A stretch of DNA of 64,000 bases, taken from NCBI GenBank assembly GCA_965223425.1, contig OZ245003.1, forward strand, positions 256,001-320,000, given 5' to 3'. Numbering within the stretch: the stretch's first letter is position 1; every line of letters begins with the position of its first letter. This document shows positions 671-63,437 of the stretch, one piece after another. The notes below the pieces were generated by a model. The model was not told where the DNA came from. It saw only the letters and a program-made list of their open reading frames with translations, and searched no databases. This DNA comes from Nitrosopumilus sp. (GTDB lineage: Archaea > Thermoproteota > Nitrososphaeria > Nitrososphaerales > Nitrosopumilaceae). The position numbers and the translations under genes were made by a program.

Positions 671-2105
671 AGACTTTATGCATAATTGAATCATAAAAAT
701 TTTTCCGAAAGATTTAGATCCATTTTGATCGCCGCAACAGGTAATGGAATCTTCAGAACAGACTATACGCAGGCTACAAAAAGAGCTCAAGCAAAAGGAC
801 ACAGCAATCAGGCAAAAGGACACAGCAATCAAGCAGAACAACAGAGCAATCAGCAAGCGCGAGAAGACGATTGGCCTGCTGCGCGAGCAGCTGCTGCGCG
901 AGGACAGCCTGTGGGCCGTTACAGATGCAGGCCGCTCTGATACGGACACGTCGCTGCTGCACATCAGGGAGGTGATCCACGGCATACTGCACAACAGCGC
1001 AAAGCTTGCGGGAATTACCGTATGACCTTGACCAGTTTGACTACATCTGCAACGACTTTGTGGCAGAGTCAAAGAGGCACAACAAAGACGCGCCGCTCTT
1101 TTCAGAGGACGAAACACCGGATCCCGGAAACCGCTGCCTGCCTGGCCGCAGGTCCGTCCTGCTGCTTGCGCTGTTCCGCAAGAGGCCAAACGTGACGCAG
1201 GACGCTCTGGGGCACTGTTTGATGTTGACCAGTCCACCGTGTGCAGGTACCTCCGGTTCGCAGATTCCGTACTGGCAAAGATTCTGCCTACTGCAGACAG
1301 GATGACCCGTCTGGTAAAAAAGGCCGAGACATCAGAGCAGCTAGAGCAGCTAATGCCGGACAGAACCATCATAATTGACGGCACCGAGGCGGTGCCAAGG
1401 CAGCGTCCGCAGGACAGGGATAAAAGAAAAAACACGTACTCTGGCAAAAAGAAGCGCTTTACGATTAACACCGCCATAACAACAAACAGGGCAGGCCCGA
1501 TGCTTGCAGCAGGCAGGTCCTTTGAGGGCGGGACGCACGACCTTGCCATGATAAGAGAGGATCCGACAGACTGGCAGGTGGTCTAAATCCATGTACAAAA
1601 AGGACACTCCGGAAAAGGACAGGATACGGGTGTCTGCAGACAAGGGGTACCGGGGATGCCAATCACTACACGGGAATGGCACTTGAGATGCCGGAAAAAA
1701 AGAGGCCGCGGACGGAGCTGACGCAGCAGCAAAAGGACTCGGACAAAAGGATCAGCGCCAAGAGGGTAAAGGCGGGGCACGCCATCGGAAGAATAAAGCA
1801 GTGGGCAAGGATGACAGACCCGTACGACGGCACGGTAGAGGAGTTTCGCGAGGAGCTGGCTGTGTGTACCGGCCTTGCGAACTTTCAACTGCTGTGGGAT
1901 GCAAAGAAAAAGCGGCCGTCACTTAGTTATTGACGGCACAGCACAGGGTGCATGAGGCACTGCAAGAGTGCGCACGGATTTCTAATTTCTGCGAATTTAC
2001 AATGATCTTTTGCATCAAAATTAAATAATTTCCTGGACTGGCTTTGTGTGTCTTGGTAGTGTGTGCTGCAGAAAAAATTTGACGGGTCAATTATGCATAA
2101 AGTCT
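671..2105 (+). mobile_element. IS5-family (ISL2-like, DDE_Tnp_4) element with multiply frameshifted transposase
   Basis: Perfect inverted repeat agactttatgcataattga (671-689 / 2087-2105). Fragments 744-1025, 1006-1305, 1239-1586 and 1676-1933 carry IIIDGTE..RQRP..YSGKKK..HDL and ADKGY. The two flanks differ, indicating an adjacent deletion. Confidence 0.85.
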
Positions 2106-17545: not shown

Positions 17546-18251
17546 AAGATTTATAGCTAACGCTGGAGAGATAATTTGGTGGGATGACATGCCAATCACC
17601 TCTGGCGTGCCTTTTCCATCTTGGCAAGCTTGCGTTTGTACAGTCCCTCGTTTCGGGACTCGTATGGTGTCCTGGTCTTGAGTATGTGCCACGCTATGGT
17701 TATCATCTTGTTGGCGACAGTCACTATGGCAAGTGCATGCTTGCCTGCATGTCTTCTCTTGGAAGACTCGTAAACTGCCTTCATTCTAGTATCATGAATT
17801 ACCGCCGTGTTTGCAGCCTCGCACATAACCCAGTTGACCAGACTGTTGGTGTCAAGCTTTTTGATTCTGCCCATGTAGTTTTTGTCGCCTGACTGGTGTA
17901 TCGCCGGACACAGGCCTGCCCATGAGACGAGATTCTTTGGGGTCTCGAATCTGACAATGTCGGCTATCTCGACGGCAAGCAGCAGTGCAGAGTAGATTCC
18001 CATGCCAGTCATGCTGGCAAGAAGTTTTGCATCCTCGTTTAGCGATGCCTCCTTTTCCAGGTGTTCATCCATGTGTCTTATCTCCTCGGTAAGGCCCCTT
18101 ATCTACCGGGCACACTGACTCGGTACTATTTCGTCATGTACGGATCCCAGGCTTGCAGACTCCATCTGTTCTACGGCCTTTATGGCATACATCTCAGAGG
18201 CATCGATTTTCACATCGTATCTGTCAAGCAGGCTGTGGACGCGGTTTATCA

Positions 18252-19603: not shown

Positions 19604-19654
19604 TATCACGCGTGTCCTGTCCTGTACGGTTCTGATCCTCTGTCTGACCATGGC

Positions 19655-19764
19655 CCGGACTCCTCTTGTGTCAGCTGACGGCACATAACACATGCACCGC
19701 CAGCAAAACTATCTGAAGGTAATGGTACCGGACTCCTCTTGTGTCAGCTGACGGCACATAACAC
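19655..19764. repeat. 37-bp direct duplication around a 36-bp filler
   Basis: ccggactcctcttgtgtcagctgacggcacataacac at 19655-19691 and 19728-19764. Confidence 0.95.
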
Positions 19765-20303
19765 TCTGGTATTGAATCCATCCTCAATACGTTTGCTATC
19801 TTTTGTGCGTCAATCTTGTCTGTCTTCTTTCCCGTCTTTGCAATTATTGCCATCTTGTAGGTGTTGGCAAGCTTTATGTCGATTCCATGTCTCTCAAAGG
19901 CGCCGTATGTGATGTTCCACATGTTGCCCGTCGTCTCGCATGCTGCCTGACATCTTCTGGCAGAATACCTGAGTGCCGTCTGTTCTGCGAATCTGTCTGC
20001 ATCTGAGACGGTGTTTTGATACTGGCCAGTATGCAAAACCTTTCCCTTCCAGTCCATGACGCATACGTCACATTTTCTCTTTCCAATGTCTATTCCTATG
20101 CTGATTGTTCCTTTGCTCATCCTTTCTATCACCTCCTTTCGGATCTTTGACGGATCGGAAGCTGCATACACCTATCAGGGCGCAAGGCCCAGTCACACAG
20201 CAGCTCGGACTGCCCCATTCAAGATCAAGGGCGCATGGCCCATATGCATACAGGGGTCGATTCATCACTACAGCTACGACGAGGTGGTTATCATGTGTTC
20301 AAA

Positions 20304-24025: not shown

Positions 24026-24795
24026 CTAAACAGAATCATTGCTTAATGATGCATTCTGGATAATAGTCTTCCACTTGTTTGCACCGTCAACCTCCATCTT
24101 TGAGGCCTGTGCTGGCGTTCTGCCTTTCAATGCTCCGTGCTTTTTGGTGAAATTGTAAGACTCTCATGCCATCCAAGACACAGGAGTATCCATCTTTTTG
24201 AGATGGTACCATGTCATGGTGGAGGGAACAAACGATACATGCCATCCAAGACACAGGAGTATCCATCTTTTTGAGACCTCTAAACACTTTCTCACGATCT
24301 CTTATTTTACCGTTCAGTCTTTCCATTTTGTTGTTGTCTCTGTCTCTTTTGCCTGCAAGATGGACATGTCTGACATGATTGGTTTTCTTTTCAAACACTT
24401 TCTTGGATGATTTCATGCAAGCTGGCAAACCGTCAGTGATGAAATTTCTTGGATTCTTTCCAGCTTGTAGTTTTGTAATGGATAGCAGGTTGTCTTCATT
24501 GTGCTGTAACTTGCTGTCTGCAATATCACTAGCCAGCCAGCATCTTGTATCATCATTCATACTTGATTATCATGTGTTCAAACAAATAATTCCGTTTACC
24601 GTTGATTTTTACCCATATTTCATCTGCCCTGAACAAGTAACCAACTCTGGGAACTATACCGTTTAGATACTCTGATGCCATCTTGGAGTATTTGCCAATC
24701 CATCTGTAGACTGTTGATTGGTTAACCTCAATTCCCATCATCTCATAATGGTTTGAAATATCCCTTACAAACATTCCCGAATAATACATTTGCAA
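24026..24795 (-). pseudogene. IS6-family transposase, frameshifted
   Basis: RADEIW, FITDGLP, NNKMERLNG, NKWKTIIQNA; paralogue of 3010-3949. Confidence 0.85.
24165..24276. repeat. 39-bp direct duplication around a 34-bp filler
   Basis: catgccatccaagacacaggagtatccatctttttgaga at 24165-24203 and 24238-24276. Confidence 0.95.
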
Positions 24796-52362: not shown

Positions 52363-53101
52363 TGTATAGTCCAAAAAGTAGTTCACCCCTTCTCCGAGTA
52401 TGTAAAGTCGATAAAGAACAGGCGCATCGACCTTACTGTCACAGGAAACAAGGGTGTGTGGGTCTGGAAGAAAAGGCTAGGAAGATACACAAGCCTGGAA
52501 CACCCCAACAACATGAAACTAAAGAAATCACAGGTACATGGATAGTACGAGAAAAGAGAAAGGGCCGTCTTGCCAACACCCAGATAGCCCAATCCGTGAA
52601 AGTGTCAGTACGATGGATCCAAAAGCTGTGGGCCAGGCACAGAAACCACACGATACAGGACATATCGCATCCTGCACTGATGGGAAGGCCCAAAAACGGC
52701 ATGCCAGGACGCAGGGAGCATTCTGCAGTCCTTGCCGTACGGTGTCAGGAGCATCTGGGTGCTGCAAACATACAAGATGCAGTCAGGGATCAGATCGGAA
52801 TAAATATCCCACACAACACCATTCACCGTATATTGAGGGACGAAGACATGGCATCAGAGGAGTCAAGGAAGGGCAAAAAGCGAAGATGGGTTCGCTGCGA
52901 GCGCACGTATTCAAACTCCCTGTGGCATACTGACTACAAGCTGCTTGATGACGGCAGGTGGTTCCTGTGCTACGAGGACGACGCCTCCAGGTTCGTGACA
53001 GGGTATGGCATGTTTGATAATGCCACTACAGAAAACGCACTCAGGGTGGAATATGAAACCAAGTAGCACAGGGGGGGGGGGTGAACTATTAGAATCCCAC
53101 A
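52363..53101 (+). mobile_element. IS481-family element with internal deletion
   Basis: TGT...ACA ends with tagttcacccc cores; WHTDYK, EDDASRF; ALRV joined directly to EYETK. Confidence 0.88.
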
Positions 53102-53103
53102 CT

Positions 53104-53982
53104 GTGGGGTATAGAGATAAGGCTAAAAAATGGCTTTCAGAGCATCCATACCTATATGCAATCTACGCCCAAAACAAGTTTCGGGGATTTACCTCACATT
53201 TGAGGGGGTTGCCAGATTTTGTCATTATCGGTGCAATGAAATCTGGAACTACTTCGCTATACGATTTTGTTGTCAGACACCCTGCCATAGAACCAGCTTT
53301 GAGAAAAGAATTGCACTATTTTTCTCTATTTCATCACCGTGGCGAACTTTGGTACCGTTCTAATTTTCCAACCAATCGAACAAAGAATTCTTTTACAAAA
53401 AAAACGGGCCAGAGACTCCTTAGTGGAGAAGCCACCGTGGATTATCTTTTTTACCCAGAAGTTCCTGCCAGAATGCGGAAGATTTTGCCAGATGTGAAAC
53501 TGATCGTGATTTTACGAAATCCTATTGATCGCGCATACTCCCACTACCACCACAATATATCGAGAAAAAATAATGAACTGTTATCGTTTGAGAAAGCCAT
53601 CGAGTTGGAAGAAAAACGGTGGTTGAAAGAGAGAATGGCTAATCAAGGACTCGAAGTTTTTACCCAACACTATCATCATAACTCGTATCTTGCCAGAGGC
53701 ATTTACGCTGATCAGCTGGAAAATTGGTTTAATCATTACCCTCGTGAACAGTTTTTGATCTTGACCACGCAAGATTTTCGTAAAAACCCTCACCGTACAC
53801 TAAATCAGATTTTTGAGTTTCTGGAGGTTTCTCCCTTTCATGTAGACAACCTGAAGGATCTCAATGTCAAAGATTACGAGGAGATGAACACGGATACGCG
53901 TTACCATCTTATTGAATACTTCAGGCCACACAATGAGAGATTGTTCAAACTCCTGCAGCGTGATTTTGATTGGAATAAGTAA
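53104..53982 (+). CDS. PAPS-dependent sulfotransferase (heparan 3-O-sulfotransferase-like), copy 1
   Basis: LPDFVIIGAMKSGTTSLY, KELHYF, LRNPIDRAYSHY; start placed at the GTG after the IS end. Confidence 0.9.
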   Translation: MGYRDKAKKWLSEHPYLYAIYAQNKFRGFTSHLRGLPDFVIIGAMKSGTTSLYDFVVRHPAIEPALRKELHYFSLFHHRGELWYRSNFPTNRTKNSFTKKTGQRLLSGEATVDYLFYPEVPARMRKILPDVKLIVILRNPIDRAYSHYHHNISRKNNELLSFEKAIELEEKRWLKERMANQGLEVFTQHYHHNSYLARGIYADQLENWFNHYPREQFLILTTQDFRKNPHRTLNQIFEFLEVSPFHVDNLKDLNVKDYEEMNTDTRYHLIEYFRPHNERLFKLLQRDFDWNK

Positions 53983-55380: not shown

Positions 55381-56573
55381 AAGTAGTTCACCCCCTGCTA
55401 CTTGGTTTCATATTACTCCCCTGTCTGCTTGATGCCAGATCTTCGTCCCTCAATATACGGTGAACCTGCTACTTGGTTTCATATTCCTCCCCTGTCTGCT
55501 CATCTACGACTATCTCCCCCTTTGGCGGCATCTTGCGCACAAAGGCCTGTGCAGGTGTTTCCCTCTGCTTTCTGTTCAGTGACATGTGGGGCCTGCGGTT
55601 GTTGTACCAGTCCATGAGCAGGTCCACCGGATCGCTTTTGCGCATCATAATTGCCACAAACTCCGGAAGCTTCCGCTGTATTTCGCCGTGCAGGCGCTCC
55701 AGCTTTCCATTGGTTTGCGGGTGTCCTACTCCTGCAAGAATCTGTTTTATTCCAAGCTCGACTAGCCTTTTTTCAAACCTGCTTGCGCCCCCCTTGCCTT
55801 GACCTCCTTTTCGTTTGCATAAAACTGCGAGCCGTGATCCGTCATGACTGCCGCAGGCTTGCCGTGGTTCCTTATGGCCTGATCCAGCACCCTGAGTGCG
55901 TTTTCTGTCGTGGCATTATCAAACATGCCATACCCTGTCACGAACCTGGAGGCGTCGTCCTCGTAGCACAGGAACCACCTGCCGTCATCAAGCAGCTTGT
56001 AGTCAGTATGCCACAGGGAGTTTGAGTAGGTGCGCTCGTAGCGAACCCATCTTCGCTTTTTGCCCTTCCTTGACTCCTCTGATGCCATGTCTTCGTCCCT
56101 CAATATACGGTGAATGGTGTTGTGGGGGATATTTATTCCGGTCTGATCCCTGACTGCATCCTGTATGTTTGCAGCACCCAGGTGCTCCTGACACCGTACG
56201 GCAAGGACTGCAGAATGCTCCCTGCGTCCTGGCATGCTGTTTTTGGGCCTTCCCATGTGTGCAGGATGCGATATGTCCTGTATCGTGTGGTTTCTGTGCC
56301 TGGCCCACAGCTTCTGGACCCACCGTACTGACACTTTCATGGATTGGGCTATCTGGGTGTTGGCAAGCTGGCCCTTTCTCTTTTCTTGCACTATCCATGT
56401 ACCTGTGATTTCTTTAGTTTCATGTTGTTGGGGTGTTCCAAACTTGTGTATCTTCCTAGCCTTTTCTTCCAGACCCACACACCCTTGTTTCCTGTGACAG
56501 TAAGGTCGATGCGCCTGTTCTTTATCGACCTTACATACTCGGAGAAGGGGTGAACTACTTTTTGTATAAGACA
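55368..56573 (-). mobile_element. IS481-family element, frameshifted
   Basis: TGT...ACA ends; WHTDYK, MTDHGSQF, QTNGKLER, WYNNRRPHMSL. Confidence 0.9.
55394..55500. repeat. 36-bp direct duplication (1 mismatch) around a 35-bp filler
   Basis: 55394-55429 and 55465-55500; the filler matches 56080-56114 at 33/35. Confidence 0.93.
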
Positions 56574-56827
56574 ATGTGACCCGTTGGGCCCGAGAGTTGG
56601 AGTGACATTACCCCGCATGAGGATGAGTACAATACTAACAACCGCAAGCGGACGGCTAAATACCGCGCAGACGGTGAATAGAAGTTATGTGTAGTTGAGG
56701 TCAAAAAGATCCGCTCATTTTCCAAGAGCGGCGCACCGGTGACAAACGTGTGGCGCATCGGCTTCCTGTACCGTTGCGTGTGAGGTGAAATTTTCACTGA
56801 TCGTCAGTATAGACATAGCACACACGT

Positions 56828-60773: not shown

Positions 60774-61054
60774 GCTTTGTTATATAATCTTCTGGTGAAG
60801 ACCCGTACTTGGAAAAGTACCGACCTTCACGGCCTTCGAGAGCTGCACATGCGCGCATCGACCTTGAGGCCTTGGCCGTCATCACGTAAAATCAGCCACG
60901 GCGTGGATCGTTTTTGATCCTGCCCGTTAAATGTGCGGCGCGCGATTGCGTCTTGAACTTGGTAGTCTGCACGCGTGGCAGAACGGATCGTCGGTAGGGT
61001 TGCGAGGACCCTACCTTGTAGGTATACAGTACAAATAGCACTGCCTCGTTAACC

Positions 61055-62020
61055 TTGGCATTGGGATATTTTCGTGATAAGGCTAAAGAATGGCTTTATA
61101 GACATCCGCGGTTACACGCGTTCTACAGCCAAAACAAGTTCCGAATAATCACATCGTCCATGAGGGGGTTGCCAGACTTTGTTATAATCGGAGCGATGAA
61201 ATCTGGAACTACTTCGCTATACGATTTTGTTGTCAGACACCCTGCCATTACACCTGCTTCCAGAAAGGAGGTGCAGTATTTTTCCTTTTGGCATGATCTT
61301 GGCAAGCTCTGGTATCGTTCTAATTTTCCGACCGATCTGTCAAGGCGTCGCTTTTACAAAAAAACTGGTCAGAATCTCCTCAGTGGAGAAGCTAGCCCAG
61401 ACTATCTTTTTCACCCGGAGGTTCCAGGTAGGATGAAGGAGCTCCTGCCTGACGTGAAACTGATCGTTATTTTGCGCAACCCGGTTGATCGCGCATATTC
61501 ACACTACCACCACAGACTATCTAGGAAGATGTTAACGCAGTCGTTTGAGAAGATCCTCGGATTGGAGGCACATGACCAAACAGAGGAAACGGAGGATCAC
61601 GACTCCAGATTTCGCTTCCGGCATCTGCGGGACAGTTCGTACCCATCTCGGCAGGTGAGAGGAGAGGGGGGGGGGGGTAGCCTGCAAAGAGGCTCCAAAA
61701 TCCGGCATCTGCGGGACAGTTCGTACCTATCTCGGGGCATCTATGCCGATCAATTGGAACGCTGGTTCAAATACTACGACATAGAACAGTTTTTGATTTT
61801 GACCGTGGAGGACTTTCATGAAAATCCCCAGCAGACGCTAGATCAAGTTTTTGACTTCTTGGGGGTGACCCCATTTCGGGCAAAGAGCCTAAAGAATCTT
61901 AACGTCGGGAACTATAAGAAGATGAGCGAGGATGTGCGTAAGGTTCTCATCGAATATTATATGCCCTGCAACGCAAGGTTGTACAAACTATTGCAGCAAA
62001 GGTTTGATTGGGATAAGTAA
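61055..62020 (+). CDS. Sulfotransferase, copy 2 (carries a 28-aa in-frame insertion)
   Basis: Same 5'-PSB and 3'-PB motifs; RHLRDSSY occurs twice. Confidence 0.9.
   Translation: MALGYFRDKAKEWLYRHPRLHAFYSQNKFRIITSSMRGLPDFVIIGAMKSGTTSLYDFVVRHPAITPASRKEVQYFSFWHDLGKLWYRSNFPTDLSRRRFYKKTGQNLLSGEASPDYLFHPEVPGRMKELLPDVKLIVILRNPVDRAYSHYHHRLSRKMLTQSFEKILGLEAHDQTEETEDHDSRFRFRHLRDSSYPSRQVRGEGGGGSLQRGSKIRHLRDSSYLSRGIYADQLERWFKYYDIEQFLILTVEDFHENPQQTLDQVFDFLGVTPFRAKSLKNLNVGNYKKMSEDVRKVLIEYYMPCNARLYKLLQQRFDWDK
61617..61735. repeat. 35-bp direct duplication (1 mismatch) around a 49-bp filler containing G12
   Basis: 61617-61651 and 61701-61735. Confidence 0.93.
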
Positions 62021-62455: not shown

Positions 62456-63355
62456 ATGGGATATTTCAGGAGTGTTGCGGGCAGGTGGCTTCGCCGACAT
62501 AAGCGTGTTCACGAGCACTACAGACGAAACGTGTTCCGGAGAATGACTGCACGTTGGAGGGTACTTCCTGATTTTGTCATCATTGGGGCACAAAAGTCCG
62601 GAACCACCTCGCTGTATAACTTTCTCATCAGACATCCAGCAATTGCTGCTGCCTCTGAAAAGGAGATCGAATATTTTTCCACACGACACAAACATGGTGA
62701 GTTGTGGTATCGTTCTAATTTTCCAATCAACATGTCAGGACATTGCTCTTTCAAAAAAAAAAAACAAACAAACAAACCGAAGCGCCTCACGGGAGAAGCC
62801 AGTCCGAAGTATCTTTTTTACCCCACGGTTCCAGACCGGATGAAGAGTCTTTTGCCGGATGTAAAACTGATTGCGATCCTGCGCAACCCCGTGGATCGCG
62901 CATATTCCCACTATCATCACTACGTGAGAGACAATATCGAGTCGCTGTCGTTTGAGGATGCCATCAGTACAGAGGAAGAACGGTGTGCTGGGGGGGGGGA
63001 GCAGTTGATCAAGGATCCGGATTCTGATCCCTGCCACTACAGACGCTATTCATATCTTGCCCGAGGTCGCTACGCCGAGCAGCTAGAAAACTGGTTCAGG
63101 TACTACGGCAGGGAGCAGTTTTTGATCCTGACCACAGAGGAATTTTACGAGGATCCACAACGGATTTTGGATCAAGCATCTGCTTTCTTGGGACTGCCCC
63201 CTCACCCATTTCAGGCAATGGGTCTAAGGAATCTCAACGTTGGAGACTACAAAGAGATGAGTGCCGATACGCGTAAATTCCTAGTCGAGTACTTCAAGTC
63301 TCACAACGAAAGGCTGGCCAAGCTGTTACGATGCAGTTTTGATTGGGACAGGTAA
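62456..63355 (+). CDS. Sulfotransferase, copy 3
   Basis: LPDFVIIGAQKSGTTSLY, KEIEYF, LRNPVDRAYSHY. Confidence 0.9.
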   Translation: MGYFRSVAGRWLRRHKRVHEHYRRNVFRRMTARWRVLPDFVIIGAQKSGTTSLYNFLIRHPAIAAASEKEIEYFSTRHKHGELWYRSNFPINMSGHCSFKKKKQTNKPKRLTGEASPKYLFYPTVPDRMKSLLPDVKLIAILRNPVDRAYSHYHHYVRDNIESLSFEDAISTEEERCAGGGEQLIKDPDSDPCHYRRYSYLARGRYAEQLENWFRYYGREQFLILTTEEFYEDPQRILDQASAFLGLPPHPFQAMGLRNLNVGDYKEMSADTRKFLVEYFKSHNERLAKLLRCSFDWDR

Positions 63356-63437
63356 ATGAGCCAGCAACGTCACTGCAATAGATCTTGTGCGTATTTGATC
63401 AAAAAATAAGGTATGAGTTTAGGTAGCCACTATCCAT

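Follow-up and report, generated by a model that had tools for sequence, protein, structure and literature searches.

The DNA analysed here, called the window throughout, is a 64-kb stretch of contig C1 (C1:256001-320000) of the archaeon Nitrosopumilus sp., whose 2.64-Mb assembly comprises C1 (2,514,870 bp, 41.2% GC) and C2 (123,097 bp) and encodes a protein matching the TATA-box-binding protein. A search of the window for direct repeats (minimum length 20, maximum distance 150) returned five families, four of which are two-copy duplications separated by a short filler, here termed scars, and the fifth of which is an ordinary 21-nt tandem repeat. The four scars had been pointed out in an earlier reading of the sequence alone, with periods of 73, 73, 71 and 84 nt, and their positions and periods were confirmed. 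They are listed in Table 1 together with two CRISPR arrays and a second cas1 located elsewhere on C1.

A 166-codon frame (window 19674-20171, minus strand), matched by Pfam to DEDD_Tnp_IS110 (E = 4.6e-20), carries the focal scar at its 3' end; the filler of this scar has no second copy in its own genome, no exact match in viral_contigs or genome_contigs, and no match at three or fewer mismatches across 100 other genomes of the genus. The second scar sits inside a frame (24090-24566, minus strand) whose match to DDE_Tnp_IS240 is weak (E = 4e-5) and falls under the Pfam cut-off; its filler has no donor copy in the genome and no exact match in viral_contigs. The third scar is found at the end of an insertion sequence (IS) element with an rve-type transposase (Pfam rve_3 at 55472-55915 and rve at 55762-56574, both on the minus strand), three paralogues of which are free of the insertion. 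The fourth scar lies inside a sulfotransferase gene (Sulfotransfer_1, E = 4e-21, window 61022-62017, plus strand), where its 84-nt period is in frame and extends the open frame from 304 codons to 332, and no donor for its filler was found in the genome.

Sulfotransferase-like paralogues form a cluster at window 53240-53982, 61055-62020, 62456-63355 and 62597-63410, and the 84-nt scar is present in the 61055-62020 copy only. The 21-nt tandem repeat (unit TCAAGCAAAAGGACACAGCAA) occurs at window 787-856, at C1:1750714 and 1919943, and at further loci.

Table 1. Scars of the window, donor-like copies of one filler, and CRISPR-Cas features elsewhere on the contig. Positions are those of the window unless prefixed with C1.
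Feature	Position	Strand	Remarks
Focal scar, 37-nt target copy 1	19655-19691		100% identical to copy 2; IS110-family element
Focal scar, 36-nt filler	19692-19727		Spacer-sized insert; period 73
Focal scar, 37-nt target copy 2	19728-19764		
Second scar, 39-nt target copy 1	24165-24203		100% identical to copy 2; period 73
Second scar, 34-nt filler	24204-24237		
Second scar, 39-nt target copy 2	24238-24276		
Third scar, 36-nt target copy 1	55394-55429		1 mismatch to copy 2; period 71
Third scar, 35-nt filler	55430-55464		Copied from the same IS family
Third scar, 36-nt target copy 2	55465-55500		
Donor-like copy of the 55430 filler, paralogous IS	52822-52856	- (inverted)	33/35 identical, 94.3%
Donor-like copy of the 55430 filler, adjacent IS copy	56080-56114	+ (same orientation)	33/35 identical, 94.3%
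Fourth scar, 35-nt target copy 1	61617-61651		1 mismatch to copy 2; period 84
Fourth scar, 49-nt filler	61652-61700		Atypically long; G12 run
Fourth scar, 35-nt target copy 2	61701-61735		
CRISPR array 1	C1:1357299-1362540		74 copies of a 36-nt repeat, 73 spacers
CRISPR array 2 (orphan)	C1:1682473-1682944		7 copies of an unrelated 36-nt repeat, spacers 35-38 nt; near VirB4/CedB-like genes
Second cas1, C-terminal fragment (cas1b type), and cas2	C1:1379700-1380400		Adjoins an ISH3-family transposase

A genome-wide class of scars with a period peak at 71-75 nt

The sequence-only reading had proposed a genome-wide plot of repeat periods, and such a plot shows a sharp peak at 71-75 nt. An exact-seed scan for isolated two-copy direct repeats no more than 300 nt apart placed 24 of 86 isolated pairs at these periods, and a mismatch-tolerant scan (at least 27/30 matches, periods 31-160) placed 29 of 56 there, with one further pair at 77 and one at 84. 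The periods of the remaining pairs are scattered and mostly multiples of three, as coding tandem repeats would give, and the peak is far above chance. Across the genome, many genes also contain long tandem repeats whose periods are 186, 156 or 222 nt.

A catalogue was compiled from the 32 pairs at periods 68-86, two of which were removed, C1:2145330 as a 27-nt tandem repeat and C1:1552333 as a 19-nt core in a repetitive gene, leaving 30 scars, all on C1; the degraded candidates C1:1271801 and C1:1722817 were left outside the 30. The two copies are identical in 19 scars and differ by one mismatch in four, and the other seven have degraded to cores shorter than 32 nt; the scars are real events of different ages. 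Among the 23 well-preserved scars the duplication measures 32-39 nt, with 16 at 35-37 nt, and the filler measures 34-41 nt in all except one, where it is 49 nt long. The 30 duplicated sequences are mutually unrelated except for one three-copy family. No scar site with three copies was found, as the 102 three-copy candidates are ordinary tandem repeats (the first 20 listed were inspected).

One scar lies within a repeated element at C1:252320, 532096 and 1305101 and apparently spread through copying of that element, three further copies of which do not carry it. Since three of the 30 scars are copies of one, the independent events number approximately 28. Five catalogued scars and one degraded scar are located in 25 kb of ORFan-rich DNA with an ArdC-N match (C1:1,706,000-1,731,000), where approximately 0.3 would be expected by length; two scars of this cluster have donors in or near the region, and VirB4/CedB-like genes and array 2 lie approximately 25 kb upstream. 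Runs of 11-13 G (or C) are present in scar fillers (window 61666-61677) and at one target end (C1:1341530-1341540).

Empty sites were sought by rebuilding each site without the filler and one copy of the duplication and comparing it with the genome. Uninterrupted paralogues exist for 14 of the 30 scars; insertion-free, gap-free copies number five for the focal scar (at least 99% identity), 35 for C1:2466835 (up to 100%), 21 for C1:105005, ten for C1:1565093 and nine for C1:1341215. The sequence-only reading had called for uninterrupted alleles in other IS copies, and these now include the focal site with identical flanks: the focal 37-mer is single in four inspected paralogues, three of which have identical flanks on both sides, with the downstream flank alone displayed for the fourth.

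Read support was examined in Logan contigs, and the source sample may be among the runs. A form that skips 73 nt at the focal site (19654 to 19728) is present in contigs of X1, X2 and X6, and because its depth in X2 (1929.8) is several-fold the single-copy depth (~345), this form is attributed to the insertion-free IS copies. A 94-nt contig (24174-24267) bridges both junctions of the 24204 filler in X1 and X2, which derive from two studies, and its depth in X2 is approximately that of single-copy sequence. No contig across the focal filler is among the matches listed, which contain flanking pieces and the empty form, and contigs of this kind are no guide to absence or to rare forms.

These data bear on whether the scars could be degenerate two-repeat mini-arrays of outside origin, duplications due to chance or slippage, or artefacts of assembly, as might be supposed from the presence of only two copies per site, which CRISPR finders could call as mini-arrays. 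The repeat, however, is host sequence that is single in paralogues with identical flanks, and the duplicated sequences are unrelated across sites outside the three-copy family. Chance cannot give the period peak, some copies have diverged, and one scar was duplicated along with its element. Independent contigs from two studies bridge the filler at 24204-24237, and like scars are present in a second assembled genome of the genus (G017). Such explanations are hardly credible. A bona fide CRISPR array was also rejected, given two copies per scar and repeats unrelated to each other and to CRISPR repeats, and a transposon target-site duplication or footprint (2-15 bp) is ruled out by duplications of 34-39 bp and by the diversity of the fillers.

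Filler origins and the fate of the scars

Mapping of the fillers, which the sequence-only reading had proposed along with a search for a shared protospacer-adjacent motif (PAM), was successful for half of the set, but no shared PAM was shown. For fifteen of the 30 fillers another chromosomal copy exists over a homologous stretch of 33-38 nt, with donor identities of 100% in four cases, 93.9-97.3% in ten and 88.6% in one, and the donors are mostly within ordinary open frames. The filler at C1:1924397-1924433 corresponds to 37 nt at the terminus of an IS that occurs at 37 places, and the similarity of the IS copies ends within approximately 2 nt of the end of the filler, which suggests capture from a free transposon end. 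An IS terminus accounts for one of the 15 donor-matched fillers, and most donors are interior to genes or elements. Of 12 unique donors, nine stand in inverted orientation to the filler, a bias that is not significant.

At the left (plus-strand) end, 1-3 nt of the filler lie beyond the donor match in ten scars (C1:168273, 722645, 1123482, 1174183, 1341215, 1341502, 1565093, 1716318, 1924360 and 1951927), as against one scar at the right end, and the bases past the left-end mismatch match the donor again in seven of eight cases, as judged by eye.

Matches to the own genome are found for inserts of 15/30 scars but for only 1/79 array spacers and, because of this difference, self-derived fragments are likely to be tolerated where they are unable to become CRISPR RNA (crRNA).

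The scars also carry a signature of selection. The period is divisible by three in 10/15 scars at single-copy loci vs 3/15 at repeated loci (Fisher p = 0.025), and frames of 1092, 413, 304, 277, 272, 236 and 162 codons remain open through the scar, which adds 24-28 codons. Open genes with scars include that of an SNF2/PLD helicase-like protein (1117-codon frame), the sulfotransferase of the window and several ORFans. A preference for IS elements, at which three of the four window scars had hinted, is not supported genome-wide, as a strict count places 8/30 scars in repeated DNA and such DNA has an 18% share of the genome (p = 0.25). A looser count of repeated DNA (at least three BLAST pieces) gives 15/30, and no targeting is claimed.

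CRISPR-Cas modules, relatives and the likely integrase

The sequence-only reading had advised a search for cas1, cas2, cas4 and arrays, and an intact module with a 36-nt repeat and 34-38-nt spacers is present outside the window. The array-1 repeat, in leader-side reading, is GTCTAAAAG...ATTGAAAC, with ends GT...AC, and the spacers are 34 nt (22), 35 nt (21), 36 nt (17), 37 nt (11) and 38 nt (2) long. Genes for cas4, cas2 and a 331-aa cas1, all above NCBIfam cut-offs, directly adjoin the high-coordinate end of array 1, and are followed on the opposite strand by a 557-aa protein without a family match and then by cas7, cas5, cas3 and a gene weakly matching cas6. The arrangement is of type I-B, and its cas4-cas1-cas2 is intact. 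Past cas6 and an IS5-family gene, a lone degenerate array-1 repeat with trailer-like sequence is found at C1:1371059-1371082; this repeat and the second cas1 (Table 1) are the remains of further CRISPR parts.

One of 73 array-1 spacers and none of six in array 2 match the own genome. The matching spacer is the third-newest of array 1 (71/73, C1:1362329-1362362) and is identical over 34/34 nt to C1:198216-198249. On its 5' side this target has TAT, and either interference is off or TAT does not function as a PAM. No phage or plasmid match was obtained for the ten newest spacers of array 1.

The duplication length matches the repeat length and the filler length matches the spacer length in the same genome. 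The ~30 scars, including the four of the window, are very likely to have arisen by off-target full-site spacer integration by Cas1-Cas2 with a ruler of approximately 36 bp. The scars combine a repeat-length duplication with a spacer-length insert, empty alleles exist, and a Cas1-Cas2 of matching geometry is encoded. The earlier proposal of a ruler-based integrase, most likely Cas1-Cas2, is thereby supported by the period peak, the matching cas module, the empty alleles and the donors. The enzyme responsible is most probably the resident type I-B Cas4-Cas1-Cas2, or else a close second module that has since degraded. The geometry, abundance, donors, empty sites, cas genes and selection signature are observed; the involvement of Cas1-Cas2 and the choice of module are what we infer. 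We know of no other enzyme class that gives such a product.

The duplicated sequences had been said to share a weak C[CA][GT]G start, which does not generalize beyond the window. Instead, GT is present at one 5' end of the duplication in 10/23 well-preserved scars, where 2000 random draws average 2.3 (P = 0.0005), a preference that resembles the GT...AC ends of the array-1 repeat.

The distribution of Cas1 and of scars in relatives provides a further comparison. Cas1 is present in 24/61 sampled genomes of the genus and the 36-nt repeat type in 8/61; in G014, G053 and G066 an orthologous Cas1 (48-63% identity) lies beside the same 36-nt repeat type, and the arrays of G007 are all orphans. Scar density was compared across three genomes, namely this one, G017 and G002, and amounts to 8-11 scars per 800 kb in the first of them. 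On contig 1 of G017 (1.94 Mb), 13/51 isolated pairs are at periods 72-76, approximately six of which are independent scars (periods 72-75), including one for which 172 paralogues lack the insertion. A single repeated element with a G-run filler accounts for the other seven, and no empty copy of it was found; every copy has the repeat-filler-repeat arrangement, at 17716, 742902, 1086776, 1221661, 1305769, 1318828 and 1401374. The sole intact Cas1 of G017 is 26% identical and lies by a 30-nt-repeat array of period 66-67, but remnants are also present: the 36-nt repeat type survives in three copies, and a 40-aa fragment is 60% identical to the Cas1 described here. G002 possesses neither Cas1 nor the 36-nt repeat, and the 800 kb examined contain one 36+36 pair with two mismatches. 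The order of densities, highest with an intact system, lower with remnants and lowest with neither, fits a CRISPR origin, three genomes being too few for a test. An isolated 31+36 pair of period 67 at position 413194 of G002 would fit the 30-nt-repeat CRISPR type of the genus.

Several observations weigh against integration by Cas1-Cas2, and in particular by the intact module. The targets do not resemble the repeats, with 14.0 identities to repeat 1 in the best register and strand vs 14.4 for 5000 random sites, and 13.2 identities to repeat 2 vs 13.6 at random sites. The mean unit length is 73.3 for scars and 71.3 for array 1 (Mann-Whitney p = 1.6e-7), and a period of 70, the commonest array-1 unit, is found in no scar. 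The ruler is inexact, as 6/23 well-preserved duplications measure 34-35 nt and one measures 32 nt, and the 49-nt filler at window 61652 exceeds the spacer size range. The 5' trimer TTC accompanies 3/14 donors, the other trimers being mixed, a count made by eye and post hoc that is not significant after correction for all trimers. G017 has no scars at 66-67, the period of its own array, and instead has scars at 72-75 without a matching intact Cas1.

Scar units are longer than those of array 1 and nearer those of array 2 (71-74, mean 72.7), and therefore the intact module may not be the writer. A variant of the same explanation is that another Cas1-Cas2 wrote the scars, either the second module, which has left a cas1b-type C-terminal fragment and cas2 at C1:1379.7-1380.4 kb by the ISH3-family transposase, or a module of a mobile element. 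The scar cluster at C1:1,706-1,731 kb, with array 2 and the VirB4/CedB-like genes approximately 25 kb upstream, also speaks for this variant. A perfect self spacer in the newest part of array 1, however, shows that the intact module has sampled the chromosome, and the 19 scars with identical copies and the four 100% donors suggest recent activity. This variant is considered rather unlikely.

A more distant alternative is a CRISPR-independent integrase of ruler type, or a repair route, of unknown nature that acts across the genus with a stagger of approximately 36 bp and inserts of approximately 36 nt, its match to CRISPR dimensions being coincidental. If true, it would explain the units approximately 2 nt longer than those of array 1, the absence of a PAM and the young-looking scars of a relative without a matching Cas1 (G017, at 72-76, where the sole intact Cas1 serves a 30-nt-repeat system), and it is favoured further by targets unlike the repeat and by the single 36+36 pair in 800 kb of the Cas1-free G002. 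Both scar sizes, however, agree with those of repeat and spacer in two resident arrays, a lost system, of which repeat and Cas1 remnants persist, explains the scars of G017, and density declines from the intact system to remnants to neither. An integrase or repair route of this kind is improbable.

Proposed mechanism and comparison with known systems

Under the preferred reading, integration by Cas1-Cas2 along its established pathway, a complex carrying a fragment of approximately 35-38 nt would attack both strands of an ordinary sequence approximately 36 bp apart, and gap repair would then duplicate the intervening 36 bp on each side of the fragment. Many of the fragments came from the own chromosome, one being the exact end of an abundant IS. 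The products are presumably inert as immunity because they have neither a leader nor a Cas6-recognizable repeat, and would act as insertion mutations of 71-75 nt. Selection would clear most of them from essential DNA, and those remaining would be in-frame scars in single-copy genes and, whatever their length, scars in IS elements and an integrated plasmid-like element. The type I-B Cas1-Cas2 clade may be intrinsically lax, and stray spacer writing may be a steady mutational force that adds inserts of 24-28 codons.

For the natural frequency, site choice and cost of off-target spacer integration, the scars constitute a natural dataset of approximately 30 fixed events with exact junctions, donors for half, empty alleles and a selection signature. 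Questions opened to test include the accuracy of an archaeal type I-B integrase without leader and repeat, the rate at which self DNA is sampled, the fate of self spacers that land where interference cannot be guided, and stray integration as a source of gene disruption and of in-frame protein insertions. For annotation, two-repeat 'mini-arrays' can be integration scars.

No report of a natural genome-wide scar set was found in the searched literature, outside which most subscription journals lie. In the type I-E 'neo-CRISPR' work of Nivala, Shipman and Church in 2018, a repeat-length stretch is reportedly duplicated in off-target events. Off-target spacer integration in vivo by over-expressed Escherichia coli Cas1-Cas2 is credited to Nivala et al. 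2018 (10.1101/148544; PMC7054753), and a citing preprint refers to 'circumstantial evidence' for natural off-target integration in two other species (10.1101/148544). The possibility raised in the sequence-only reading of an undescribed process is thus superseded, given that off-target integration has already been reported for E. coli (10.1101/148544; PMC7054753). As in the E. coli events, a spacer-sized fragment occupies a non-CRISPR genomic site. In contrast to that case, which involved over-expression and electroporated oligonucleotides, the scars are a natural record from an archaeon whose system is of type I-B and whose ruler measures 36 bp. They comprise approximately 30 fixed events in one chromosome with half of the inserts self-derived, and are single events only, many of which persist as in-frame insertions in open genes.

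Purified components offer a second comparison. According to a study of Pyrococcus furiosus, Cas1-Cas2 in vitro makes off-target attacks on opposite strands one repeat length apart, with G preferred at the attacked nucleotide (PMC6698737), to which the GT at one 5' end in 10/23 scars is similar. The P. furiosus events described there took place in vitro on plasmids, with a 30-bp ruler and several repeat-like bases at the sites (PMC6698737), whereas the scars are fixed in vivo, follow a ruler of approximately 36 bp and show no overall similarity to the repeat.

The scars resemble the arrays of their own genome in combining a 36-nt repeat with a 34-38-nt insert, and one array-1 spacer is also self-derived. 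Unlike the arrays, each scar has two copies of a sequence that differs from site to site, no leader, and a unit approximately 2 nt above that of array 1.

Transposons integrate by staggered strand transfer followed by gap repair, and casposons leave target-site duplications of approximately 14-15 bp. The scars share this chemistry, but their duplications of 34-39 bp are far longer than those of IS elements, and their cargo consists of 34-39-nt fragments from varied sources that lack both terminal repeats and a transposase. Set beside these systems, the scar set stands out as a natural case of a known process through its scale, the archaeal type I-B background, the mostly self-derived inserts and the fixation of in-frame insertions in proteins.

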